Positions 975 through 64,000 of a DNA stretch of 64,000 nt are shown in pieces; position 1 is the first letter of the stretch; the number at the start of each line of letters is the position of its first letter. This DNA is from Cyanidioschyzon merolae (taxonomy: Eukaryota), in assembly GCA_000091205.1 (NCBI GenBank), contig AP006502.2. One strand, 5' to 3'. Made by a program: the position numbers and the translations under genes. The notes beneath the pieces are model-generated. The model was not told the DNA's origin, ran no database searches, and worked only from the letters and a program-made list of their open reading frames with translations.

Positions 975-2636
975 TCAGCGAATCGCGTCGTTCTTATCAC
1001 TGGTCTCCGTTTTGAGGGTTTCGTCAATGCTGAGAATCGTGCATGCAGCCTCCGTTGCCGAAGCAAATGCATTGGCACGAATCAGGACCGGTTCCCAGAC
1101 ATAGTTCTGCCAGCAGTCTTGCGGTTCACCGGTTTCCAGGTTTGCTCCGAACCAGAGATTCTCGTCGCTGGTCGCGTGTTTTGCCCGTAGTTTGTTGAGG
1201 AGGTCAGTGGCGTCAAAACCAGCATTCTCACAGAGTGTGCGGGGTATGGTCTCGAGTGCTTTGCCGTAAGCCGCGAGCAAGAGCTGCGCTTTGCCCTGGA
1301 TATGCCTAGATCGCTCCCGCAGAAACTTGCTGAGCTCCATTTCGACAGCGCCGCCACCAGCCACCAGCTCGGGGTACTTGAGCGTACGTCTGACAATCAT
1401 GATGGCGTCGTGTAGGGAACGCTCGGTTTCATCGAGGAATTGCTCGGATCCGCCGCGGAGTAAAATGGTGGCCGACCGAGCCTCCTTGCATCCAGTGAAA
1501 AAGTTAAAGCGCTCCGCTCCGACCTGCCGCTCTTCGAACCACTCACAGGTACCCAGAGCCTCTTCCACTCGCATATCGTGAACAGTGGTCTGAACGCGGG
1601 CACCGACCGCTCGCGCCACCCGCTGCAGATCGGCATCGGGAACACGACCAGCACAGAAAACTCCGCGATCAGCGAAGTACTGCGTCGCGAGATCGCCAAT
1701 TGCCAGCCGGGAGAGCACAACACGAGCTCCAGTGGCCACTATTTTCTCAAGTTTCTCGTAGATGATATTCCACTCCGCGTCCACGATTTGCTGGTAAGCA
1801 GCAGCGGATTGCACCCGCACCTCCGCATTCTCCTTCTCGGACTTGAGTTCCAGTTCTAAGTTTAACAGCAGAATCTTGGGTTGATGTATCTTCTTCGGCT
1901 GCTGCTCAAAGCCGGCATAGCTGAACGTCTTCTTGAAGCCGACACCCGCGACGAGGCACGAGTCCGTCACACTGCCACCATTGACCTTTTTCACGCCGAT
2001 CATGTCCAGGTCCAGATCATCATCCAGGGCGAGGACTGCATCAACAGCTATACCTGCGAAAAATTCACGGTATTGCGCGATGAGCTTGCTGTTGAGCGCC
2101 GTCCCCGCACAGCGCTGTAGCAGGGCGCGAGCGGCCTCACGTTCTTCTGTGGAAACGCGTTCGGGATCGGCGCGCAGGACCTTCAGTTGACCGCTCACAT
2201 CGACCGCGATCTGCTTCAAGCGCTCCGAGATCATGCGGTGTGCCTCGCGATAAGCGTAGATGATAACGCGTGGGTGCACGCCGTCCTCGAGAAAGCCCTT
2301 CGCCTGACGCAGCAGCTCGCCTGCCAGCAGCACTACCGACGTGGTACCGTCACCGACTTCCTCGTCTTGAGACTTGGCGATGTCAGCTAGCAAACGAGCC
2401 GCAGGATGCACAACTTCGAGCACTCGAAGGATCGTCGCGCCGTCATTCGATATAGTGACCTTGCCGTCGCTCCCCTGGATGAGTTTATCCATGCCTCGCG
2501 GGCCCAGTGTGCTGTGCAACACCTCTACAACCTGCTCGCAGGCGTTGATGTTGGATATGATCTGCCCGATACCTTGTGAAGCGTCCACGTCATCTTTGAG
2601 GATAATGATCGGAGGATAACCAGAAACCTGCGCCAT
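975..2636 (-). CDS. CCT7: T-complex protein 1 subunit eta (CCT7, group II chaperonin). The ORF runs on to 2771, but the conserved start is [16 protein letters not shown] at 2636.
   Basis: 598-aa ORF with [13 protein letters not shown] and the equatorial/apical domain motifs. It aligns near full length to CCT eta (e.g. [16 protein letters not shown] and [11 protein letters not shown] equivalents). Confidence 0.9.
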
Positions 2637-3631: not shown

Positions 3632-4678
3632 GTGTTTTCTGCAATGGTGCAGTCGGTAAACCTGGATACGGGGCAAGCGGAGGAATTCGAGTTGAAGCAG
3701 GGGCAGTGCGGTGCCGCACAGGAACCGCTCATACCAATCCGCATCGATGTGCAGTGGAACGATGCCCGTGTTGTCGATGCCTTTCTTTGGAACCAATATG
3801 AAGAACGCCTCACACCGGAGACGTTTGCCCCACACCTGCTCCGGGATCTGCAGCAACCTATGGAGCTTGCAAACGGTGTTGCGTCCGCCATTCGCGAGCA
3901 GATAGAGCAGTACTCTCCCTTTGAACACGAGCTATTCGCGGATCGTTCCGAGTTGCGCCTGCTCTTTACCTTGGATGTGCGAATAGGGAATATCCAGCTA
4001 CAGGATACCTTTGAGTGGGATGCGCTCTCATTCGAAAGCGATCCCGAGCAGTTTTCGCGGATGCTCTGTCGAGAACTGGGCCTTGGAACAGAGTTTAGCA
4101 CCGCCATCGCCCATGCGATTCGTGAACAGTTGCAGGACGTTTGGGCGGGTGTCGCTTACTCCCAAAAAAGCATTCTGGAATCCGTGCATCCGCGTATAAC
4201 GATTCGGGATGGCGAAGATTGGGAGCTTCCGGGTCCCGCGGTGCGCGTGCTCTCCAAGGAGGAACTCGAAGAGGTGGAGCGGCGTGAGGATCGCAGTGCT
4301 CGCGCCATGCGTCGCAGTCAGCGCAAATCCGGGCTGAGCTGGGGCCTGGCCCCAGCGCCAACGCTCCGGGAGCGCTCCGTGGACAGCACTGTGTTTTTCG
4401 GGCCGCGGCAAGCCGTGGCCGAAGAGCGCCCCAAACGGCGTCGCAACCAGAATCCTGTTGACTCTGAGGGTCGGCCCGTCGTAGCCTGCAGCCATTGTGG
4501 TCGACATCCGTCAAAAACGCCTTTAATGCGAGTTGGACCACGTGGTCTCAAGAACGAAATCTGCAATAGTTGTGGCCTGTACTATCGCAAATATGGAGAG
4601 CTTCCCACGCATTATAAGGGCTATCCCATTGGGCCTGGGTATCCGCCACCTCCTGGAAGTCAGGAACATGATGCATAA
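3632..4678 (+). CDS. SNF5/SMARCB1-family protein (SWI/SNF core subunit) with both SNF5 repeats and a C-terminal GATA-like C4 zinc finger.
   Basis: Rpt1 (LIPIRIDVQWNDARVVDAFLWN...ASAIREQIEQY) and Rpt2 (RIGNIQLQDTFEWD...LCRELGLGTEFSTAIAHAIREQL) align to SMARCB1/BSH. The C-terminus reads CSHCG...TPLMRVGPRG...CNSCGLYYRK. Confidence 0.8.
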   Translation: MFSAMVQSVNLDTGQAEEFELKQGQCGAAQEPLIPIRIDVQWNDARVVDAFLWNQYEERLTPETFAPHLLRDLQQPMELANGVASAIREQIEQYSPFEHELFADRSELRLLFTLDVRIGNIQLQDTFEWDALSFESDPEQFSRMLCRELGLGTEFSTAIAHAIREQLQDVWAGVAYSQKSILESVHPRITIRDGEDWELPGPAVRVLSKEELEEVERREDRSARAMRRSQRKSGLSWGLAPAPTLRERSVDSTVFFGPRQAVAEERPKRRRNQNPVDSEGRPVVACSHCGRHPSKTPLMRVGPRGLKNEICNSCGLYYRKYGELPTHYKGYPIGPGYPPPPGSQEHDA

Positions 4679-29980: not shown

Positions 29981-32728
29981 CTAAACAGATGGGCGGCGTG
30001 CATCCGCGACTCGGAGTACTTGCAATGGCCGAGTGAGTATTTCTTCTCTCTTCTTCTGATAAAGTTTCTCCAACGCAGACTTGCACGACTCATAGGTCTG
30101 CTCTAGTACGCGAAGCTCATCCTCAATTACCTGTGTCATATGGGGTCCACGTTCGCAAAGAGCGCGACTCTGCTCCTGCGCTTTGGCGCCGGCACGCAGC
30201 AGCGTCTCCATTGCTTTCATCATATCTCGTAGCGAGGGTGTTTTGCTCATCGCGTTTCCGCTGTCCTCATTCAAAGAAACGCCCACTGATCCTGTTGCTG
30301 TATGCAACGGTTCGTGACCCATCGACAGGAACAGCGAGCTGCAGCCCGACGCAGGTGCCTGTGCCGAATAGGTACGCTCGCGTGGCTGCTGTGTCCCGCG
30401 GGAGCGCCCTTCCGCTGCCGCTGCGTGTGACGATTCTCTTCTCGTTTCGCTGCGCTCTGCAGTGCGGACGTTTCCAGTATCCGATGCTCGACACCGATGA
30501 TCACCGTCACCGCTACCGTCATGATCTTCTTCTGGTTTTTCATCGGAGAGATTCGCCCACCAGCCCCGCGCGATGAGGTCGAGGGGCGCGTGCTCGAGTT
30601 CGCCTCGAAGCATCGCATCCGCAGCGGCGTTGCCGAGCGCACGCCGACCGTGTCGTTTGTCGTGTGCGGATGCAGCATCGAAACCGAGCAAGCATCGATG
30701 AATGCTCGCAAGCCATTCTCGAAGTCTATTGGTCGCGTCCACAAAGCTTCGATAGAGGGCACGCGATCGACGCATCAGCGCCAGGTGATTGCTTCCGAGC
30801 AAGAGCTGCTGTTCCAGCACAGATTCCATCATCTGATTCAAGGTTGCAAACAGCTGCATGGCGTCGTGAACGATAAGTCGCGCAGCCTCTTGCATGATTT
30901 CATTATGGACGTTCACCGAGGCCATGCTTTCGTTGACGTGCGCGTGCGGCACGGGACTTGTCGCCACCTCTACAACGCTCTCCAGGCGCACTTCTGTGAC
31001 TGCGTTCAGTTCATAGAGCAGCACTGGGATGACTTCTCGAAGCGCTCTCTCGAACGGGACGCGCTCCGAGAGCTCCTCGCCGAGTCTCGACGACACGACC
31101 CCCATTTCATCGACACAGCAGGGCGTCCGCTCTGCCGCCGGAGGTAACGATGCGAAACGATCGCCGAGCTCATCCAAAATTTTCGATTCCTGACGCTCGC
31201 CCAGGTAGAGGATGCGAAAACTTTCCAATCGTGTCCAGAGATACCGAGCGTATTCTCTGACAAAGAGCGAGCACGCTGTTGCTTCGGGCCTGGTGCGGCT
31301 TTCGTCGCGGAATGCCCGCGCCACAGCTTCCAAACTCATGACATGATGTGCAACCGCAGGCAACGGTTCAGCATTTGTCTCGCTAGAAACGCTACTTCCA
31401 CTGGCGGTCGCTGCACCAGCCTGACTCGAGCGCGTGATCAGACGGCGCGTCCAGTCACGTTGTCCGCGAGGGGACACGCCGCTTGAATGCGCAGCCAATC
31501 GCTCCAGTAAGTTGAGCATCGGCGAGTCGCTCGCTGTCCGTTGAGAACGTGTCGCCCCCGGGTGACTGCAGGCGTCGTCCGAATCGACGTCGTGGATGCG
31601 CGCTGGACGCTGCAGCCGCTCGTAGTAGGTCGCCCAGAGGCGAAACGCCACACTATCTGCGTAATGCGCTGCATCGCGCATGAGGCGATGCGCCACCATC
31701 AGAACCTTACAGACAATCCGCCAGTCCCGTTCCTGGCCGTGTCGCCAGAGCTTGCGAACAATGTCCCCGCAGAGCAGCATGCGTTCGACGGCGAGTGCAA
31801 CGTCTTCGGCACGCTCGCCGCCGTCGCTGGACCAGGTACCCGTCGGGGGATTCCGTTGACGATGATGTGGAAGCCGCTGGACGTGGAATGTCGATACCTT
31901 ATTGAGGCCGTACTGGGGTTTTGTGCTCAAGATCGCCACCGCAGTCTTTCTTGGGGCAGGCGTGTTGCTGTTGCTATTGTTGCTGCTGCTTTCGGGGCCC
32001 GGCTCCAGCGGCACGCCACCAGTCGTGGTGTGGGTCAGCGCGTCGGTGCCTCGCGCCTCGGGTGTCCCACCGGTCTGCGTGTTCTCAAGCAAATAAAAAA
32101 GGGCATCACCGCACCCTTGCAGTGAAGCTAACAGCGTCAGAACATATTTCTCTTTCGGGGCGGTGTACTTGGGCTTGCTCGCTTTGAGAACCGCTGCCTC
32201 GACGTCAGAGGAAAACGCCGCGGAGATCTTGCGTGTCAGTCTCTTCGTCGTATTCCCCAGCGTCGTTGCTTGAAGCGGCTTCCCCGGTGCCGACGTTCTG
32301 GTCCAATCGGACACCTCGCTTCCTGACGGAACAGGAGCCCTGCCCGGGTGCGTAGAAGCGCTCGTGCCAGTGAGGTCACCGGGTGGTAAACCTGCTCGCA
32401 GCGCCCTATCAGTTGTTTCACTCGTTGTACCCAAGTTTTTCCGAGGTGTCACTGAGTTCTTTTCGTATTGTACGTTCATGAAGAAAACTCGTGTAGCTCG
32501 CAGCTTCACCGTGCCCTGCTTCTGTTCGAAGGAGAAAATATGGAATTCATGCCGTTTTTGGCATCGACGCGCGCCTATACGGCGCTGCTCCGGCACAGCT
32601 GATGCGACATGGTCGTATCTTCTATAAAAGGTAAGTTTTGAATCTATTTTGACAGATTTATCTAGCCGATGCGCATCCGTGACGCACATCGTCATGGCAG
32701 TCATAGGACCTGCGCCTGGAGATACCAT
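29981..32728 (-). CDS. ANTH/ENTH-domain (AP180/CALM-like) clathrin-adaptor-type protein with a low-complexity insertion and a long C-terminal region. The true start is probably internal.
   Basis: AAVLKASKPKYTAPKEKYVLTLL resembles CKATTHEVMGPKKKHLDYL, and WRIVCKVLMVAHRLMRDAAHY resembles WVVVFKALVTVHHLMVHG in ANTH domains. The rest is non-repetitive ORF of 915 aa. Confidence 0.45.
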   Translation of the reverse strand: MVSPGAGPMTAMTMCVTDAHRLDKSVKIDSKLTFYRRYDHVASAVPEQRRIGARRCQKRHEFHIFSFEQKQGTVKLRATRVFFMNVQYEKNSVTPRKNLGTTSETTDRALRAGLPPGDLTGTSASTHPGRAPVPSGSEVSDWTRTSAPGKPLQATTLGNTTKRLTRKISAAFSSDVEAAVLKASKPKYTAPKEKYVLTLLASLQGCGDALFYLLENTQTGGTPEARGTDALTHTTTGGVPLEPGPESSSNNSNSNTPAPRKTAVAILSTKPQYGLNKVSTFHVQRLPHHRQRNPPTGTWSSDGGERAEDVALAVERMLLCGDIVRKLWRHGQERDWRIVCKVLMVAHRLMRDAAHYADSVAFRLWATYYERLQRPARIHDVDSDDACSHPGATRSQRTASDSPMLNLLERLAAHSSGVSPRGQRDWTRRLITRSSQAGAATASGSSVSSETNAEPLPAVAHHVMSLEAVARAFRDESRTRPEATACSLFVREYARYLWTRLESFRILYLGERQESKILDELGDRFASLPPAAERTPCCVDEMGVVSSRLGEELSERVPFERALREVIPVLLYELNAVTEVRLESVVEVATSPVPHAHVNESMASVNVHNEIMQEAARLIVHDAMQLFATLNQMMESVLEQQLLLGSNHLALMRRSRALYRSFVDATNRLREWLASIHRCLLGFDAASAHDKRHGRRALGNAAADAMLRGELEHAPLDLIARGWWANLSDEKPEEDHDGSGDGDHRCRASDTGNVRTAERSETRRESSHAAAAEGRSRGTQQPRERTYSAQAPASGCSSLFLSMGHEPLHTATGSVGVSLNEDSGNAMSKTPSLRDMMKAMETLLRAGAKAQEQSRALCERGPHMTQVIEDELRVLEQTYESCKSALEKLYQKKREEILTRPLQVLRVADARRPSV

Positions 32729-34332: not shown

Positions 34333-34944
34333 TTAGCCAGCACGTTGAACGCTTCGGCGAATACGCGTTTCGTGCTTCCGCGTTACCGAAGAAGTTCTCG
34401 ACCGCAGCGCGGTCTCATGGTTTTCTACCAAAGATCGTCCGCATGTGCGATTTCGACGCTCGTTTTCGCTTTGAATCAAGAATGCAATGCATCCGTCTTC
34501 GCTCAGTACGGTGCTCCGAGCGTCTAGATGGGCAATGAGTGCGCCTATCCGCTTGGTAATATGCCTGCTGGCGTCGTGCATGCGTGACTCCCGACAAAAT
34601 CCTGGCATGGAAAAGAAGAGCAGCATCATTTGCTTCCCGTTCAGATCTTCGGGTCCGTCCTCATGATTTAGAAGTACGACAACGGCCAAGACATCTTTCA
34701 ACTCAGGAGTTTTACGCTCTATCAAATCTTTCTCTTCATCTACCTGGATCAGTTGAACATGAGTTTCGTTGGTTTTCTTATAACTAGGTTTCATAAAGTG
34801 CATGCAGATAGATATTCCATCGTTCTCCATGGGCCATGTACATTGCTGTCGAGTTCCTCCCTGTAGATGAAGATCCTTGATAGAGCTCGTCGAATACGCT
34901 TTGGAAAGCGGTTTGAGTGCTTCGTATTTGGCCGCAGAGGCCAT
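34333..34944 (-). CDS. Hypothetical ORF (203 aa) inside the lower-GC island. It may be spurious or a decayed element.
   Basis: ORF only, with no recognisable motif. Lies in the compositionally atypical 33.4-37.1 kb region. Confidence 0.15.
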   Translation of the reverse strand: MASAAKYEALKPLSKAYSTSSIKDLHLQGGTRQQCTWPMENDGISICMHFMKPSYKKTNETHVQLIQVDEEKDLIERKTPELKDVLAVVVLLNHEDGPEDLNGKQMMLLFFSMPGFCRESRMHDASRHITKRIGALIAHLDARSTVLSEDGCIAFLIQSENERRNRTCGRSLVENHETALRSRTSSVTRKHETRIRRSVQRAG

Positions 34945-37038
34945 CCATCGTTCACTGGCAAGTCCATATAGTCAAGTACACAAATCTCGCTGGCGGTATC
35001 ATGGGCACTGTTCTCACACATACCGACAACATCGAATGGAGAACCTTGGGGAGGCTAGGGCGCCCGCATACTGCACTTAGATAGTCTGCTTTGCTCTGGG
35101 CAGCTATCATCAGAAACACGCAGCATCGCAAGGTGCAAGCAAGGTAGGCAAACATCATGTTTGATCCATCGTTTGGATGCCACGTCCGCCGATCCGAGGC
35201 CGCGAACAGTGCCATAAGCTCGGATGATCCGAAGCGACTTTCGCTCTTGTCACAACATGCCGTCCAAAGTCGCCACATTCTAGTTCCACCGCCGCCACTA
35301 GCCCATCATTTGCATGAATAGACATCCCGAAGATGCATTCCACCAATCCCCATTTTTCTGGACACGCGGCGTGATGCTACAACGTCTTCAGAGTATCCCA
35401 TGTGAGGCGTTCGATATTCACCGGCATGTAGTGTCTGAGGTTGATTTGATACTTTTTGGAACCTGTGCTCCAGATGCTCCGATCGCCCACGTCGCCCAGC
35501 TACGATTCAGGGGTGCTCCGGAAACCACCAGGGCTTTTCTTTGGTCATCGAATCTGGCAGTATGGCATCTTATTTCTAGGGCATCTTTTGCGTCCTCGCA
35601 AGGAATTGATTGAAAAATTTGCGAATAATCTGGATAGCGGGCAACTCTGGGCCCGGAACTCCCACCTGCAGTTGCTTGAACAGAGGCTTCAAGGCGAGGA
35701 AGTCTAGTAGAGCGTTCCGCGGATAAGCAGCTTCGCGATCTGGAATCGTATCCTGCGATCTTCGGCGTCATGATGTCGAACGACCCGTCTACGAGCTCCT
35801 GAGCCTCATACGGCATTCGATATCGGAGAAGACGCCTGTGGCTGAATTGTGCTATGGAGAATAGACTGGAGCGGAGAGCAGCTCAACGTCGATCCGAGCA
35901 ACGTGTTCCTTGACTACGCTCGAGTGACGAAATGCGACCTTGTCTGAAAGCATCATTGAGGAATTTGGATAGAGGAAGCCCCGAAAACTGCTTCAATGAA
36001 CGATGCAGTTTTGACGAATCCAATATCTTTTGCGATTCTGGAGGAGGACTATATGATTGCATATTAGCTAAGGCTGATGTTTGTCGTACGGCTCGCTTGT
36101 CGCTTCTTAACGAACACCGATCTGTATCGGTTTGGGAATCCATTTCCAGGACAAGCATCTCCCTTGGATGAGGTCTCATCGAGTGAGACGAAGACTCGTT
36201 CCTCCTGTGCTCATTTTCGCGTTCCAATTCGAAATCGATAGCGTGTTGATCAAAGCGCGATCATCAGTTATAGAAGCGTGCTTCTTTCTTTGTTCATCCG
36301 TGTCTTGCTATTACCGATCGTATCAAAGGCCCGGAAACTTTACATTCTATGGGTTATTTCATGGCCTTTCTTCGAGAATAAATGGAATGGAATGAACTGA
36401 TCAGGAGATCGTAGTGTCAACAGAGATTCATACCTTCCGTTTTTAACTTACGACAGGCAGAACAGGGACCAGGAAAAGTACGGTTTAGCTACCTGCTGAA
36501 GGTAGAACAAATTAATTGTAAGTGTCCGGGCATCTCCCACAAGCTAGCAGTGACAGCATAACGTCTCGTCGCGACATGTCCCCAACTGCAATGTACATTT
36601 CTTCTGTTGAATACATTCCATCATAAACAAACCAAAAGAAAAGTGCCTGCTAGTACAGGCATTCCAGAATGCTGTTCCCCAAGTACAATCGTGTTTGACG
36701 GTACGGCTGATAGCCACCACGCTCGCTGGGCATTCCACGACGCCGCAACAGGCATGCTGGTTTCGCAACGACACCTGTTAGCATGTCGATAACCAAACTG
36801 ACATGGTGAGGATATTTCAATAAAACATCAAAGCGTCTTACTTTGAAGGGAATACTGCCGGTTGTCCGGGGCGCTTTTCGTCCGAAAGGCTGCAAACTGT
36901 CCAGGTGCCAACCATCAAGGACGCAACGATGATTTCTTCCTACCCAATGCGTATACGACCGCGAAAGACGTGCTTCGATCCTCGCTAACCACGCACTGGA
37001 CCATGCCGTTCTGCATGAATCGGAGAAACACCGATGAT

Positions 37039-37217
37039 CAAGAGAAGCTTGCCGCTAACCAGAATGGAGCCGGAGTAGCTCCTCGGGGAGCCACAAAAAG
37101 CACTGGGAACATGGGCACAATATAGTCCGGCTGGGTGACAAGATCACGTAATGTTCGGACACACACGGTATCGCGTGGCAACCGTGCCGCATCAAGTCCG
37201 ATATCGTCAAGAAGAAC
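37039..37217 (-). CDS. TTC4: TTC4/Cns1-like, putative exon 2 (C-terminal end of the CNS1 domain), separated from exon 1 by an intron of about 406 nt (37218-37623).
   Basis: A GTAAGT donor sits immediately after codon W. A phase-0 acceptor ...aaacag|GTT restores the frame VLLDDIGLDAARLPRDTVCVRTLRDLVTQPDYIVPMFPVLFVAPRG, which aligns with the human TTC4 C-terminus DEDRAELYRVPAKSTLLQVLQHQRYFVKALTPAFLVCVGSSP. Confidence 0.5.
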
Positions 37218-37623
37218 CTGTTTCCAAGTGCCTTGCTCCTCTGGAGGTAACAGGGAGCCACAAAACTCGTTATCCTGTACTCTTGTCAGGTCACGTAAGA
37301 GCGCTGGGTCGCCGACATCGACCAGCGTTCGGGTCCATTGCGTTGCATACCTGGCGTGCAGAAGTGCATCTCACTGGGCGGTTAGTTCTGTGTTCTGCAT
37401 ATCGCGGTGGTCACTCTACGAGCATCACAGTATACGTTTCGCTCTCAGACGGGTAAACGGCGTTTCGGGGTGCGAGGGCAACGCGCGTCGAAGCGCCCGT
37501 TGCAAAAGACTTGCGCAACGCATCACGGACCCGTTCTCTACTCACGGGTCAGATATGATCAAGTCCGTCATCCTCGAACGGGGTCCAGTTGGGCAGCATG
37601 CTCGCTGCCTGATGCGAAGAAAC

Positions 37624-38625
37624 TTACCAAAAAGCAACTCGATCGCAGCGATATCGTCCTTCTGGGTCGAAGGTTAACGCAGGCGGTCCCTCAACGGGTA
37701 ATAGATCAGAAAAGAGCGCTTGCAGCTCTGCGTCATCGTCAACGTTTTCGAAAAAATCGCTTTGTTGAACTAACGGGTACACCACCATGAACGGCCAGCT
37801 GAACTTGATGGACACAGTGCTTTCCGAATCAGGATTGGGCTCGTCCCGTGCCACGGGTACGGGTTTCGGTTGCCAGTTTGAGACTTTTTTCTGTTGCGCA
37901 AATAGCGGCATCCCGAGGCGAATTCGCTGGCGTTCTAGGGTATCGAGCAAGCGCTGACTCTGGTCGACTCGCTGCTGGAGCAGGGCGTCCTTCTCAGCGA
38001 GCAAGCGCTGGGCACGTACCATCTCCTCGGCGATTCGTTCTTCGAGACGCTGAAGCGCTCTGCGCTCGAGCACATGTTCCGGGGCTTTGGTGCGTTCCAA
38101 GCCCTGTTCGCAAAATGTTCGCGCTTCAGGCAGCTTGCCCAGAGCTAGAGCACACGCACTTGCCCGATAAAAGGCTTTCGGGTGTTCCAGACCGCACGAA
38201 CGGATACACTGCTGTGCATCATGCAGGCCTCGCGCATAGTTTCCAAGTCGTCGATGTACCTCCGCTCGGTTTAGGTAGAGTGCACCTCGAACGGTTGAGG
38301 AGACTCCTGGTAAAGCTAGTGCTTCCGTGTACGACGCCATCGCCTGATGGAACAACGCGTGAGCACGTTTTCGTAACGTCGCCACGCTTTGCTCACCGCC
38401 AGGGAGTGTTAAATCTGCACCGGGATCATTTCCGCGGTCGAGTAGACGGCAGCCAAGGCGGTATCTCTGGTTGCCACGTTGACGCAAAAGCTCGGCCTGC
38501 TCATCAGCGGTCTCGTCGCCTTGTATCAGACGTCGCAGGGCCGAGTCAGCCGGAAGCTCTTCAGCGTTCTCAGCAAAAAGGTCTGGAAGTAGATCGTTAT
38601 TCTCGGAAAACGAGTGCTCTTTCAT
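37624..38625 (-). CDS. TTC4: TTC4/Cns1-like TPR co-chaperone, exon 1 (TPR repeats plus the first part of the CNS1/wheel domain).
   Basis: TPR region (QRGNQRYRLG..., YLNRAEVHRRLGNYARGLHDAQQCI, KAFYRASACALALGKLPEA) and WPFMVVYPLVQQSDFF..DPEGRYRCDRVAFW align with human TTC4 WPVLFLYPEYAQSDFI..DLEQKYCPDNLEVYFE. The ORF ends in TGG|TAAGT. Confidence 0.8.
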   Translation of the reverse strand: MKEHSFSENNDLLPDLFAENAEELPADSALRRLIQGDETADEQAELLRQRGNQRYRLGCRLLDRGNDPGADLTLPGGEQSVATLRKRAHALFHQAMASYTEALALPGVSSTVRGALYLNRAEVHRRLGNYARGLHDAQQCIRSCGLEHPKAFYRASACALALGKLPEARTFCEQGLERTKAPEHVLERRALQRLEERIAEEMVRAQRLLAEKDALLQQRVDQSQRLLDTLERQRIRLGMPLFAQQKKVSNWQPKPVPVARDEPNPDSESTVSIKFSWPFMVVYPLVQQSDFFENVDDDAELQALFSDLLPVEGPPALTFDPEGRYRCDRVAFW

Positions 38626-40232
38626 GGACGTTCTCGGATGCCGAACGCTCCGAAGCCGGCCGCCGCCGTGCAGCTGTAGTTGCTGAACCTCACGGATACC
38701 GAGCGGTTACGCTGCACCGCCTTTTTTGACGCGTTCTGAAACCCTCTTTCGCTTTACAAACCGCTGAATTATCGCCAACCCACTTTATGGCACTTGTCAA
38801 TGCCGCAACTAAAGCCGCTCGGCACGAAGATCCGACTCCCTATCCCTACACAGTACGTATCAAGGGGTGCAGGGAATACCAGCGGATCGAAATTGTCGCT
38901 CAGCGGCTGGCGATGCATTGCTGCAGCGGCGCGAGCGCCCAGCTTCGTACGGGCGCGCTCATGTGATTCTCCCGAGTGCGCCTTCATTGAGGCCGGTGCA
39001 CGACGAGCAGTCCCTGCAACGAATGCGACGAGCATTTTCCAGTATCAGCAACGACTATGATACCAGGAGTACGTGTTCGACTCCCGATCAAGGTCTGACA
39101 CGGTGAAGCGACACCGACGCTGCGCGCTTTACAAACTACACTAGTGTTTATTCAGCTAGTCCACATTTGTACAAGATTCAAGCAATTTGTTGCGGAAGAA
39201 AGATTTTTGTGTGTGCCTCAAAAAAGATTGCACCTCATATCAATGAGACAAATGCTAAGGTATCACCCGGGAGCTGGGATAGTCGTTGAACCACTGCAAT
39301 CAGTGTCTGGTTTCATGACGTGTTCACCTGAAGCGGCGATCAGCGTTCGTTTCGCATGCGGTCTCGGATACCTGCACCAAGGCAATCGTGGCAAGCATTT
39401 GTTTATTCTGTTTTATAGCTGGGAAGGAGAGATTTGGGAACGATTTTCCCACAACGAGCAGCATCGCATGGGTTGCATCAGTGTGCTCCAAATGAACCAG
39501 AGGCTATGAGAATGCTTTGTTTCCGAGTGGATAGAGTCAACGGCGACCTTGTATGCTGCTGCTTACCTGTACCCCAAAGTAGCCGAATGCCAGCGCAAAA
39601 GCCTGCTGGACTGTCTGCGTGCGATGTTTCACATGCATGTAAGCGTATCCATAGAACCTGGCACACATACGCCTTGTGGAGGTACCCGCAAGGGCCCCGC
39701 CACACTGTCCTGTTACCATTCGGCGACCGCGAAGGCAGCGCACCCAGGATCGAAGCAAGCGCCTAGGGCAGGCTCAGGGCTCGCCAATAGGTCGTTGAAG
39801 CTTTGATGACTCTGTCGAAGAGGGAAAATCTGGAACGAGCTTACAGAAGGTGTTAGCCTCTGCGCACGAACGGATATCTCTTGCTCGCATATCAGCAGCA
39901 GCACCAGCAGCAGCACTTGAACATACTGTAGCGTCTGTTCGAATCATCGAAACGTGTCCGGGATGCAGGATCCCATCAACGATCCTGGATATCCCCGACT
40001 GCGCAATGGGCATCGGTATCTGGGAAATCATCTATCCTTCCCCAAAGTACCTTTAAGAGATCCTCCACTCCATCACCAACGCTACCTCATCGTGCTACCT
40101 TGCTTGCTTTTCGCATCAACGATGCAGCGCGCTGGGCACCGACACGCCGGCCGCCGGCGTTCAATAGAGCTCCCCTAGGCTCGATATACGACCGCGTTGT
40201 GTTACGATTATTTTTTGCGTAGGTGAGTTTCC

Positions 40233-42494
40233 ATGAAACAATTCGCATTCGTGGAGCACGCTGCTTTCGTTTACCCGGCGCTTCGACACACTCCGCGTCC
40301 AGAGAAGACTTGGAGTGCTTCACTCGCGTGCGGTGCGATCCCAGGGAACACTGGTCAGGTTCCAGGCTCTCGGTTGTTGCCGCGCTGGAGACACCGTGGC
40401 CTCGGTCTGACAACCGGCGTACACAAACGCACTGCCAAATACCGATCTCACAGGGGTACAAGCTCCCTGCACTCCGCTCAAGAGAATGCGAACTCGGCAA
40501 AGCCACTAGAGCCCGTGAGCGAGCACCGGCCGCTGCGCATCATTTTGGCTGGCCCGCCGGCTTCTGGAAAGGGTACCCAAGCTGCTCTTTTAGTTGAACG
40601 GTATGGTCTCGTACATATATCTACAGGGGATATGCTTCGGGCTGCCGTCGAAGCGGGCAGTGAGCTGGGCCTCGCTGCCAAAAAGTACATGGACGCGGGG
40701 GAGCTTGTCCCCGACGAGCTTGTCATAGGGCTCATGCAACAGCGCATGGCTGCGCCTGATGTGCAGACAAGTGGTTGGCTCCTGGACGGCTTTCCTCGAA
40801 CCGCTGCGCAGATTGTAGCTATGGATGCGGCGGGTATCGAACCTGACCTGGTGATCAGCTTGGATGTGCCCTTCGAGATCCTCAAGGAGAGGGTCTCCGG
40901 TCGCCGGCTGGATCCGGAAACTGGTCGGATTTATCACCTGCGTTTCGATCCACCGCCAGCGTCGGACAAAGCCCTTTTAGATCGTCTCATCCAGCGTTCA
41001 GATGATGATGTGCAAAAGCTTGCCGTGAGGTTTGAGAACTACCGGGAGAACGTGGATGCGCTAAGGCAACGATATGGCGCGATTATGGCGGAGATCGACG
41101 GGCGTCGCTCAAAAGAGCAAGTCTTCGAAAATATTACCCGTGCAGTTGGCATGCTACGAATGCGACGTAGCTGGCAGATGAAGCGCTCGAGGCCGCCAAG
41201 AATCATCCTCCTTGGACCACCGTTATCGGGAGTGGAAAAGTACGCCGCGAGGCTCTGTAAAGATCTCGGCTGTATCCGCATCTCTACGGAACAAGTCATT
41301 CGAGATGCAGCAGCAGCAGAGCAGACGAGAACGGGTCTCATGATCCGGCAGCATTTGGAGAATAACGAGTTGGTGCCGGATCATCTGGTCGCTCATGTGC
41401 TTGGGAAGCGCCTCGCCGCCGCAGATGTGGAGCAACACGGATGGCTGCTCGACGATGTGCCGCGACGTATCATGAAAGCCAGTTCGCTACTGGATGCAGG
41501 TATCGAACCTGATCTCGTTTTGTTGCTCTATTTACCACATGAAGATCTGGAAGAACGAATGGTTCAACGTCTCTGGGACCCGGAAACCGGTCGCTACTTC
41601 CATGAGAAATATGATCCGCCCTCAGCAGATGATGCAGCCCTCAGAGCGCGATTGATTCACCGCACCGATGAGGATGAGAATCTGGCGCGATGGTTACTCG
41701 GAACGTACTACGTCGTAGAGTCAGAGCTTGAGGCTCAATACGCCGGTAGAATTGTTCAGATCGATGGGCTTGCCCCCGACGAGGAAATTTACAAGCAAAT
41801 GACAGCGGCAATAGAAGCGCGAGGGATTCCTCTGCTGTCCGACTTGACACGCGCCACCTTCGAGGACCTGGAACTCGGGAGTGCATTCATGGTGCTCTAC
41901 CGTGATCCCAAGCCCGCCACAATCCATGAAGTCCGTTGGCGAGGCAAAGGCGCATGGCCAGACCTTTTTACACGGCCACTGCTTGCGATTGGTGATCTGA
42001 TTGCGCTCTTGGTTGCGAGTAGCGTGTTGCGTCTGCTTTATGGCGGCAGACTCATCTTGGATGCGATCGTTTGGAAAACAGCTGCACCGTTTATCATTGT
42101 GTGGATCGTTGGCGCCCCGTACATAGACGCTTTCACGCAGAATGCCCTTCGAGATCGCCGGGAAGCTTTGCTATCTCTATTTCGAGCCTGGCGAGTCTGC
42201 ATGCCCTTTGCGGTCTTTGTTCGAGCGCAGTCCATGGGCTTCGCGCCACCTCTACATTTCATCGTCGCGTTGCTTCTGCTCACCTACGTATTCTTGGCTC
42301 TGTGGCGTCTCTGTTATGTCATTTTTCTACAGGGCGAGTATGATTCAGAGGGTAATAGGACGCTGAGCCTTCGGGATTTGGGGCCATGGCGTCGACCAGT
42401 CGACAGGGGGGCGCCCTATCCCGGCAGCGTTCGTTCCCAGACGCCTCCGTTGACCGACTCTTCATTGTTTCGCGAAACTCTAGGACCAACGTGA
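40233..42494 (+). CDS. Tandem adenylate-kinase protein. AK domain 1 is canonical, AK domain 2 has a degenerate P-loop, and the C-terminal domain is hydrophobic (3-4 predicted TM helices). An N-terminal presequence is possible.
   Basis: Domain 1: ILAGPPASGKGTQAALLVERYGLVHISTGDMLRAAV...GWLLDGFPRTAAQ plus a LID region. Domain 2: IILLGPPLSGVEKYAARL...GWLLDDVPRRIMKA, with P-loop K and G lost. The C-terminus has LLAIGDLIALLVASSVL, FIIVWIVGAPYI and HFIVALLLLTYVFLALWRL. Confidence 0.8.
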   Translation: MKQFAFVEHAAFVYPALRHTPRPEKTWSASLACGAIPGNTGQVPGSRLLPRWRHRGLGLTTGVHKRTAKYRSHRGTSSLHSAQENANSAKPLEPVSEHRPLRIILAGPPASGKGTQAALLVERYGLVHISTGDMLRAAVEAGSELGLAAKKYMDAGELVPDELVIGLMQQRMAAPDVQTSGWLLDGFPRTAAQIVAMDAAGIEPDLVISLDVPFEILKERVSGRRLDPETGRIYHLRFDPPPASDKALLDRLIQRSDDDVQKLAVRFENYRENVDALRQRYGAIMAEIDGRRSKEQVFENITRAVGMLRMRRSWQMKRSRPPRIILLGPPLSGVEKYAARLCKDLGCIRISTEQVIRDAAAAEQTRTGLMIRQHLENNELVPDHLVAHVLGKRLAAADVEQHGWLLDDVPRRIMKASSLLDAGIEPDLVLLLYLPHEDLEERMVQRLWDPETGRYFHEKYDPPSADDAALRARLIHRTDEDENLARWLLGTYYVVESELEAQYAGRIVQIDGLAPDEEIYKQMTAAIEARGIPLLSDLTRATFEDLELGSAFMVLYRDPKPATIHEVRWRGKGAWPDLFTRPLLAIGDLIALLVASSVLRLLYGGRLILDAIVWKTAAPFIIVWIVGAPYIDAFTQNALRDRREALLSLFRAWRVCMPFAVFVRAQSMGFAPPLHFIVALLLLTYVFLALWRLCYVIFLQGEYDSEGNRTLSLRDLGPWRRPVDRGAPYPGSVRSQTPPLTDSSLFRETLGPT

Positions 42495-62247: not shown

Positions 62248-64000
62248 TTACAGTTCGTCGTGTTCCTCGCTATCCCGATCATCATCTGCCGACGAGTCTG
62301 CTGACGAGTCCTTGCCGGTTCCCTTTGCGGACTCGTAGGTCTTCAGAATAATCGGCTGAACAACGTCTTGGAAGGCCTTCATCCGTTCCTCGATGGCGGC
62401 CGCATCCGAGGCTTCACCGTGCTCGTCCAGCCAGTCCTGAGCGCTCTCAACACTGTCTTTGAGCTTGTCTATATCGTCTGTGCTGAGTTTGGTCTTTTTG
62501 TCCTTGTCCTCGTACATCTGACGCACCTGGTAGATGTAGTTTTCAAAGTTATTTTTGGCGTCCACCTTGCGTTTGAGCTTGGCATCGACCTCGGCGTACT
62601 CCTCTGCCTCACGAACCATTCGCTGGATTTCTTCGTCCTTGAGGCGTCCTTTGTCGTTTCGAATGGTGATCTTCTCGCGTTTGCCTGCCGTCTTCTCCTC
62701 TGCACTGACCTGGAGAATGCCGTTTGCGTCGATCTCAAACGTGACTTCTATTTGTGGAACACCGCGCGGAGCAGGCGGAATGCCCGTCAGTTCAAACTTA
62801 CCCAGCAGATGGTTGTCCTTGGTTGCAACGCGCTCGCCCTCGTACACTTGAATGAGCACGGAACTCTGCCGGTCCACATGGGTCGTAAATATCTGACTCT
62901 TCTTCGTTGGGATGGTGGTTCCGCGGTTAATGATTTTGGTCATGACACCACCAACGGTCTCAATGCCAAGCGACAAGGGCGTCACGTCTAGAAGCAGGAT
63001 GTCTTTGGTGGTTTCCCCACCCTCGCCAGATAAGATCGCGCCTTGCACCGCCGCGCCGTACGCGACAGCCTCGTCAGGATTGATGCCTTTCGAGGGCTGC
63101 TTCCCGTCGAAGAACTCCGTAATGAGTTCCTGTATCTTGGGAATGCGCGTGGAGCCACCAACCAAAACGATCTCGTCGATATCCTTCTTCTCCTTCTTGG
63201 CATCTTTGAGGACGATCTCCACTGGCTTGAGCGTCTTGCGAAACAGATCCATGTTCAGGTTTTCGAAGCGAGCTCGTGTCAGCTCCTCGATGAGATCCTT
63301 CCCATCCATGATGGATTCAATCTCGATCCGCACCTGCGTCTGGTAACTGAGCGCTCGCTTCGCCTTTTCCACTTCGCGCCGAAGCTTAGCCATCGCACGT
63401 TTATCGGTCCGCAAGTCCAAGCCATCGTTCTTCTTCTTGAATTGTTTCACCAAATAATCCATCACCCGCTGGTCAAAATCTTCGCCTCCTAAGTGGGTAT
63501 CGCCGTTCGTCGCGAGCACTTCAAAGACACCGTCATCGAGGGTAAGTAGCGTCACGTCAAAGGTACCACCACCTAGGTCGAAAACAAGAATGTTCTTCTC
63601 AGAGCCGCCCTTGTCGAGCCCGTATGCAATGGCGGCAGCGGTCGGCTCATTGATGATGCGCTGAACCGTCAGGCCGGCGATGGTGCCTGCATCCTTCGTA
63701 GCCTGCCGCTGTGCGTCATTGAAATATGCCGGCACGGTGACGACCGCGTTCTTCACAGGCTTACCTAAATAGTCTTCAGCAATTTTCTTCATTTTGCCTA
63801 GGATCATTGCACTTATCTCTTCGGGCGAGAACGTCTTCACTTCCCCATCGCGCACTTCTACCCGAATGTAAGGTTTGCCGTCCTTGTTCACGACTTTGTA
63901 CGGCAATAACTTTATATCTTTCTGGACAGTCTCTTCATCGAAACGCCTTCCGATGAGTCGTTTCACGTCGAAAATCGTCCGCTCCGGGTTCAGTGCCAGC
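62248..64000 (-). CDS. BIP: ER luminal Hsp70 BiP/GRP78, partial. The N-terminal roughly 100+ aa lie beyond the window end.
   Basis: Typical Hsp70 sequence ([28 protein letters not shown], the substrate-binding domain) ending in the ER-retention signal HDEL immediately before the stop. The ORF is open to the window edge. Confidence 0.95.

Follow-up and report, generated by a model that had tools for sequence, protein, structure and literature searches.

The spliceosomal intron of a TTC4/Cns1 gene in Cyanidioschyzon merolae and a candidate box C/D small nucleolar RNA within it

In the current study, we describe a minus-strand gene (38625..37038) in a 64,000-nucleotide (nt) stretch of nuclear DNA from Cyanidioschyzon merolae (strain 10D or near-identical); the whole stretch is referred to below as the window. 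The gene is a homologue of the Hsp90 co-chaperone TTC4/Cns1, and it is interrupted by an intron that we model as a canonical U2-type intron of 277 nt (37627..37351), with GTAAGT, ACTAACC, and CAG as its signals and a protein of 436 amino acids (aa) as its spliced product. We put the probability of this model at about 0.94. The spliced product is identical to the RefSeq protein XP_005539517.1, and the intron is thus already held by the reference annotation; it is ordinary and already known, and does not constitute a novel annotation. It is also likely that the intron owes its survival, in a genome with very few introns, to its middle part, which encodes a candidate box C/D small nucleolar RNA (snoRNA).

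The 277-nt intron and its conservation

The unspliced minus-strand open reading frame (ORF; 38625..37627) contains 333 codons and ends as ...GRYRCDRVAFW ahead of a TAA, the minus-strand text at the end of exon 1 reading ...ttt tgg taa gtt tct.... An initial annotation of this DNA had described an ORF that ends in ...DRVAFW and TAA, as well as a GTAAGT donor overlapping the Trp and stop codons, and both features are present as described (Table 1). Downstream, the frame that continues the protein is offset by +1 from the ORF and reads ...ARYATQWTRTLVDVGDPALLRDLTRVQDNEFCGSLLPPEEQGTWKQVLLDDIGLDAARLPRDTVCVRTLRDLVTQPDYIVPMFPVLFVAPRGATPAPFWLAASFS; the same annotation had assigned to this frame an open stretch of 59 codons, and it is indeed the true C-terminal frame, but it is open for approximately 109 codons, from about 37364 to the TGA at 37040..37038. 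Given this +1 offset, the two frames can be joined only by removing a segment of length 1 (mod 3), and 277 nt is such a length. Joining the two exons listed in Table 1 (38625..37628 and 37350..37038) gives a 436-aa product identical to XP_005539517.1 (BAM83481.1; C. merolae 10D), and a protein search placed the 333-aa ORF in a 90% cluster shared with this same protein. Splicing would thus join TG to G, restore Trp-333, and continue as YATQWTRTL..., yielding a protein with a complete Wheel domain, the first half of which is encoded by exon 1 (together with the TPR domain and a long helix) and the second half by exon 2.

The intron was compared with its counterparts in three other Cyanidiales lineages, represented by a JGI hot-spring metagenome contig (L001; 54% protein identity), a Logan assembly close to Cyanidiococcus yangmingshanensis (L002; 54%), and a GC-rich ENA assembly (L005; 36%). 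In each of these, an intron follows the TG of the same Trp codon, with lengths of 266, 276, and 258 nt, respectively (2, 0, and 0 (mod 3), versus 1 in the window). The spacers within the intron are unconserved (pairwise identity 0.28–0.39), while the splice signals are kept: the window, L001, and L002 have one and the same extended 5' splice site, GTAAGTTT, where L005 has GTAAGC; the branch-site block CACAGAACTAACCGC is 94% invariant across the same three sequences, with ACTAACC also found in L005; and the acceptor, YAG/GTA(T/C)GC (the slash marks the splice junction), is kept in all four lineages, after which the frame resumes as W-Y-A-T-x-W-T-R. The distance from the branch A to the end of the intron is 31 nt in the window versus 29, 30, and 48 nt in the orthologous introns. 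In the proteins, residues 334–377 (YATQWTRTLVDVGDPALLRDLTRVQDNEFCGSLLPPEEQGTWKQ) are among the best-conserved stretches across the four lineages. With both its position and its signals kept in this way, the proposal of the initial annotation that a spliceosomal intron interrupts the gene is well founded. Two metagenome contigs (L003 and L004) carry an intron sequence identical to that of the window, and nothing beyond near-identical C. merolae contigs came out of the metagenome scan. Word-indexed protein searches, using either the ORF or a four-sequence profile, returned only three Cyanidiales clusters; it was an exhaustive HMMER search that reached the L005 lineage and the uninterrupted homologues described below. 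A perfect 6-bp hairpin (GGCAGC-GAGCAT-GCTGCC) is present in C. merolae only and is not kept in L001, L002, or L005.

The signals of the TTC4 intron (GTAAGT, ACTAACC, and AG) equal the published C. merolae intron consensus (GUAAGU/ACUAACC/AG), and ACTAACC occurs only once on both strands of the 64 kb, namely at the branch site of this intron. Ordinary U2-type splicing would proceed on the near-invariant signals of the species, using a YAG acceptor that lies 31 nt after the branch A. A looser scan of the whole window for GTAAGT...ACTAAC...AG, on both strands, gave three matches against 0.65 expected by chance, the TTC4 intron included. Neither of the other two is an intron: one lies antisense to the TTC4 gene and is attributable to chance, and the other falls within the codons for LLGKFEL (at 62801) of a BiP/Hsp70 ORF, and is coding. 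No further stretch of the window fits the full species consensus on either strand. On the evidence of these scans, the initial annotation was right to regard the intron as the sole one in the window. In the BiP match, G/GTAAGTTT at 62801 mimics the extended 5' splice site perfectly, but it is coding, within the conserved LLGKFEL; the ORF itself (62248..63966, minus strand) is of the endoplasmic reticulum type, with a C-terminal HDEL and an N-terminus that may run past the end of the window.

Protein homology is also continuous at the junction, which is spanned without a break by the alignment to seven uninterrupted TTC4-like proteins of other organisms; the shared motifs are Y-x-x-x-W-T, F-x-G-S, G-x-W, and DYIVP-FPV. 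The ORF downstream, with the ending ...PDYIVPMFPVLFVAPRG..., had been identified from the outset as the missing C-terminus, and the continuation of homology into these proteins bears this out. A profile of 386 positions was made only from the seven uninterrupted proteins and used to score the competing products. The 436-aa product obtained 223.9 bits and matched in one piece over profile positions 22–384. Lower scores were obtained for the 392-aa product of the initial annotation, in which an intron of about 406 nt ends at 37218 (187.0 bits, in two pieces, with positions 310–355 missing), for the frameshifted product of a GT-AG intron ending at that same position (158.9 bits, one piece, positions 22–311), and for the unspliced 333-aa ORF (157.9 bits, one piece, positions 22–309). 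Pfam gave the same ranking for the Cns1/TTC4 Wheel domain (PF18972), with 31.7 bits for the 436-aa product, 25.7 for the product of the initial annotation, and 24.3 for the unspliced ORF, which holds the TPR repeats and the first half of the domain (profile positions 6–60 of 114). The gathering cut-off of 27 bits is passed by the 436-aa product alone.

An AlphaFold model of the spliced product, built from a 64-sequence alignment, has a mean predicted local distance difference test score (pLDDT) of 89.2; a beta-strand at residues 330–335 spans the junction, and pLDDT stays high through exon 2, which in this predicted structure completes the Wheel fold. The best matches of the model in the PDB are yeast Cns1 (6HFT; E = 3.1e-9 over 378 columns) and the C-terminal domain of human TTC4 (6HFO; template modelling score 0.66, target-normalised), and the best PDB match by sequence is also Cns1. 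Together, the TPR and Wheel matches and these fold matches agree with the gene identity given in the initial annotation: the protein is a TTC4/Cns1 co-chaperone homologue, with an activity that is predicted from homology. Its architecture is that of the Hsp70/Hsp90 co-chaperones human TTC4 and yeast Cns1, with TPR repeats and a long helix followed by the Wheel domain at the C-terminus. It is only about 14% identical to yeast Cns1, and the Cyanidiales proteins differ from both co-chaperones by additional residues (about 350–395) within the second Wheel half.

Table 1. Coordinates of the intron, of the candidate snoRNA, and of the flanking genes (window positions unless a contig is named).
Feature	Coordinates	Strand	Remarks
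Exon 1	38625..37628	-	998 nt; ATG to first two bases (TG) of Trp-333 codon
Spliceosomal GT-AG intron	37627..37351	-	277 nt, phase 2
5' splice site GTAAGT	37627..37622	-	extended form TG/GTAAGTTT; first G is last base of Trp codon
Branch site ACTAACC	37386..37380	-	branch A at 37382, 31 nt upstream of last intron base
3' splice site CAG	37353..37351	-	followed by GTATGC (Trp completed, Tyr-Ala next)
Exon 2, coding part	37350..37038	-	310 nt (last base of W333 and residues 334–436) plus TGA stop 37040..37038
Candidate box C/D snoRNA	37579..37441	-	139 nt in long form; 5' end uncertain, short form from near 37530
Terminal stem GTTC / GAGC	ends of 37579..37441	-	3–4 bp
C box AGGATGA	37574..37568	-
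D' box CTGA	37552..37549	-
C' box GTGATGC	37526..37520	-	GTGATGA or CTGATGA in relatives
Hairpin insert	between C' box and guide	-	about 45 nt
Guide GCCGTTTACCCGT	37461..37449	-	13 nt, directly 5' of D box
D box CTGA	37448..37445	-
snoRNA counterpart in L001	about 4047..4186
snoRNA counterpart in L002	about 2212..2354
snoRNA counterpart in L005	about 4003..4103
Genes flanking TTC4	29981..32728 and 40233..42494	- and +	order conserved with L001 and L005

Competing models of the intron

Several points weigh against the 277-nt model. The junction, probable as it is, comes from annotation and conservation rather than from RNA; the Wheel match of the 436-aa product stops at profile position 83 of 114; and the branch A is followed by two other AGs, at +8 (CAG) and +12 (GAG), before the acceptor is reached. 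Moreover, of the 27 C. merolae introns in the NCBI annotation, 26 have been confirmed and one was found to be misannotated, the identity of which is not given in the accessible text (Slat, Stark & Rader, 2026; bioRxiv 10.64898/2026.05.17.725761).

Among the alternatives to the 277-nt model, the one that fares best, although we consider it very improbable, is that there is no productive splicing at all; the gene would then stop after 333 aa, with ...DRVAFW, and the ORF that follows downstream would be either a relic or something separate. Prokaryote-style gene callers often give an ORF of 333 or 332 aa here, the Cyanidiococcus protein KAF6003661.1 stops at this very point, and the published splicing efficiency of C. 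merolae is only 42–50% overall, from which it follows that an unspliced, stop-bearing RNA probably exists. Against this, exon 2 encodes a protein segment that is conserved in four lineages despite their differing intron lengths, that has its homologue at the C-terminal end of the uninterrupted TTC4-like proteins, and without which the Wheel fold of the confident model would be incomplete; in addition, RefSeq annotates the spliced 436-aa protein.

Still less probable is a model in which splicing mainly uses the first usable AG after the branch site, which is the GAG at +12 (ending at 37370), giving a 258-nt intron, a TGA at the junction, and a 332-aa product. This acceptor would be chosen by a simple first-AG rule, and comparable upstream AGs are found in L001 and L005. 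Three of the four lineages have such a non-YAG site, GAG or AAG, after the branch site and ahead of the YAG acceptor (37370..37375 on the minus strand of the window, 4242..4251 in L001, and about 4183 in L005). The CAG at +8 is too near the branch A for use. With these two AGs ahead of the CAG at 37353..37351, acceptor choice in the 277-nt model does not follow a plain first-AG rule. The choice of the GAG would, however, create a TGA stop and destroy the conserved frame of exon 2, and each of the upstream AGs checked, in the window and in L001, would give an immediate or early stop. Where upstream AGs occur at a distance of more than 10 nt from the branch A, as in three lineages, they are all GAG or AAG, whereas the conserved site is always YAG; L002 lacks any upstream AG; and the stretch from branch site to acceptor is unconserved (0.39 identity), in contrast to AG/GTATGC. 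A general preference for YAG operates in 3' splice-site choice, and GAG and AAG are poor acceptors.

The least probable of the alternatives is the intron of about 406 (or 410) nt that the initial annotation had proposed, running from the Trp/stop codons to the AG at 37218 and giving a product of 392–393 aa that resumes as VLLDDIGL in phase 0. The sequence aaacag/GTT does exist (37223..37218/37217), the frame that follows it (VLLDDIGLDAARLPRD..., to the stop at 37040..37038) is the true C-terminal frame, and the product scores 29 bits above the unspliced ORF on the profile of uninterrupted homologues; however, this is not where exon 2 starts, as 37218..37219 lies inside exon 2, within codons K376-Q377-V378. 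From the GT at 37627 to the AG at 37218 there are 410 nt (2 (mod 3)), the removal of which shifts the frame to FFLTISD... (W-FFLTISDLMRHG...) and not to VLLDD, while the 406-nt version is in frame only when the intron begins with TAAGT and hence lacks a GT. The proposed donor and the proposed frame therefore cannot both hold, and the intron is in phase 2 rather than phase 0. The model also loses the 44 residues at 334–377, which alignment shows to be conserved in the four lineages and in the uninterrupted homologues; it splits the profile match in two, 37 bits below the 436-aa product, and leaves the Pfam Wheel score under the cut-off. The AG at 37218 is itself unconserved, the orthologues reading tgg aag cgg/cgc gtg, and the search for a branch motif that had been suggested upstream of it finds none there: the only one (37386..37380) lies 162 nt before this AG, versus 29–48 nt in the four orthologous introns. 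The model is thus rejected on grounds of frame and conservation. The actual intron length is 277 nt, with CAG 37353..37351 as its acceptor, and with a product identical to the RefSeq protein, the annotation correction that had been anticipated falls away.

A candidate box C/D snoRNA in the middle of the intron

Within the 277-nt intron, the middle segment has a pairwise identity of 0.69 overall, and of 0.92 over the guide and D box, versus 0.28 and 0.31 in the flanking spacers. It can be read as a candidate box C/D snoRNA (Table 1). The 13-nt guide GCCGTTTACCCGT and the adjoining CTGA are invariant in all four lineages, including the distant L005, which has a shorter version of the RNA. The C box is a perfect GTGATGA in L005, and the terminal stem (GUUC/GAGC) shows a change from U-G to U-A in L002. 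The complement of the guide, CGGGTAAACGGCG, is found in eukaryotic large-subunit (LSU) ribosomal RNA (rRNA), just 5' of helix 69, and was confirmed on L013, a contig of contaminating eukaryotic rDNA that scores 3239 bits against Rfam RF02543. The guide upstream of the D box would direct 2'-O-methylation of the G shown in brackets in CGG[G]UAAAC of 25S/28S rRNA; by the fifth-nucleotide rule, it is the last G of CGGG that is predicted to be methylated, about 16 nt 5' of the GUAAC of helix 69. This predicted 2'-O-methylguanosine (Gm) occupies what we take, by our own numbering, to be the position of human 28S G3723, the site of SNORD87. SNORD87 guides the modification of LSU-G3723, near bridge B2a (PMC10911272).

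Six observations weigh against this assignment. In three lineages, C. merolae among them, the C box reads AGGATGA, with one mismatch to RUGAUGA. The D' guide is unconserved. The target segment was read in the LSU rRNA of other eukaryotes. An Rfam cmscan of 37000..37800 (E <= 10) gave no match on the intron, SNORD87 included. The fold energy of the candidate is no better than that of shuffled sequence (z = -0.61); minimum-free-energy folding is uninformative for box C/D RNAs. Finally, the host introns of the C. merolae snoRNAs are unnamed in the accessible portions of the published texts.

The same data bear on a rival view, in which the conserved middle of the intron is another kind of stable intronic RNA or a splicing-regulatory element, and not a snoRNA. 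Precedents come from a December 2025 preprint, which, in its accessible part, reports stable RNAs in 23 of 39 C. merolae introns, of which 11 are box C/D snoRNAs and another 11 are non-snoRNA RNAs termed "sieRNAs"; the lack of an Rfam match, the imperfect C box, and the unusually long insert between the C' box and the guide point in the same direction. Nevertheless, we regard this view as unlikely. Candidate C, D', C', and D boxes follow one another in the order expected of the class and are accompanied by a putative terminal stem, and the 13 nt before the D box are not only invariant in four lineages but also perfectly complementary to a universally conserved segment of LSU rRNA, a complementarity to about 5 kb of rRNA for which we estimate a chance probability of roughly 1e-4.

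With the snoRNA reading preferred, the RNA is very likely to be among the 11 box C/D snoRNAs counted in the preprint, and its class is already known. Somewhat less securely than the presence of a snoRNA, but still with fair likelihood, the intron may be said to have survived a loss of about 98% of introns as the host of a snoRNA that guides Gm at the SNORD87 position, through a pairing older than the split between the Cyanidioschyzon/Cyanidiococcus lineage and the GC-rich L005 lineage. The closest known system is human SNORD87, which is likewise hosted by an intron and directed at 28S Gm3723. The candidate resembles it in its putative C/D'/C'/D boxes and terminal stem and in its guide directly 5' of the D box, as well as in a (predicted) target G just 5' of helix 69. 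The two differ in that the C. merolae candidate matches no Rfam family, has the C box AGGAUGA within the C. merolae clade, has its guide set apart from C' by the hairpin insert of about 45 nt, and resides in another host gene. If the assignment is true, the identity, the target, and the depth of conservation of one intronic snoRNA would be new detail beyond the bare count given in the preprints.

Database records, gene neighborhood, and splicing in C. merolae

The intron has left a trace in the protein databases. Twelve members of the ORF's cluster (from JGI/IMG, Logan, and ENA; within P0001–P0016) end at the intron, at 333–335 aa, and the GenBank protein KAF6003661.1 of Cyanidiococcus yangmingshanensis (332 aa) is truncated there as well, whereas KAK4531317.1 (433 aa) and XP_005539517.1 (436 aa) are correctly spliced. 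In one further record (P0019, 86 aa), exon 2 of a Cyanidiococcus-like relative stands as a protein by itself, having been called as an ORF of its own. The versions of 332–333 aa in metagenome catalogues are truncations that result from intron-blind gene calling. The 436-aa gene model in the C. merolae reference is correct, and the practical value of the present analysis for annotation is small.

The search for the rRNA target motif produced a separate observation on database content. More than 120 contigs (L006–L085 among them), from assemblies that carry a bacterial or archaeal label, contain an exact 27-nt motif of eukaryotic LSU rRNA, and the one contig checked (L013, an Aureibaculum flavum scaffold) contains a full eukaryotic LSU rRNA by Rfam. 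This indicates, with one contig checked, that eukaryotic rDNA contaminates these bacterial and archaeal assemblies. In viral contigs, the rRNA target motif gave no match.

Around the TTC4 gene, the order adenylate kinase+DUF3054, TTC4, and ANTH-domain gene is common to the window, L001, and L005. The C. merolae spacers on either side of TTC4 (about 35000..37000 and 38700..40200) are long and contain no ORFs of 200 aa or more, and a 203-aa ORF at 34333..34944 has no Pfam match.

According to the literature, C. merolae lacks the U1 small nuclear ribonucleoprotein (snRNP) and splices inefficiently. Its introns number 27 in the NCBI annotation and 39 in the accessible text of Slat, Stark & Rader (2026; bioRxiv 10.64898/2026.05.17.725761), and published descriptions, as far as their text is accessible, place a premature stop at the very 5' end of 85% of C. 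merolae introns and give phase 2 as the commonest phase. The TTC4 intron shares all of these traits with the annotated introns of the species—GUAAGU, ACUAACC, and AG, phase 2, a premature stop at its 5' end, and a product in RefSeq—and shows no detectable difference from them. Because it lies in phase 2 after TG and begins with GTAAGT, the unspliced RNA reads TGG TAA and encodes 333 aa lacking half of the Wheel domain; the low published efficiency of splicing, combined with stops biased to the 5' end, implies that truncated TTC4 messages probably exist. Introns of the Saccharomyces cerevisiae type (GUAUGU/UACUAAC/YAG) offer a parallel, as near-invariant signals in an intron-poor genome of which some introns are snoRNA hosts; the GUAAGU at the 5' end of the TTC4 intron differs from the GUAUGU of that type, and C. 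merolae, in contrast to yeast, is U1-less.

The TTC4 locus is a clean example of rigid splice signals in a minimal, U1-less spliceosome. If the snoRNA reading holds, the locus would also illustrate why a few introns persist in a nearly intron-free genome, an idea already published by the Rader laboratory.

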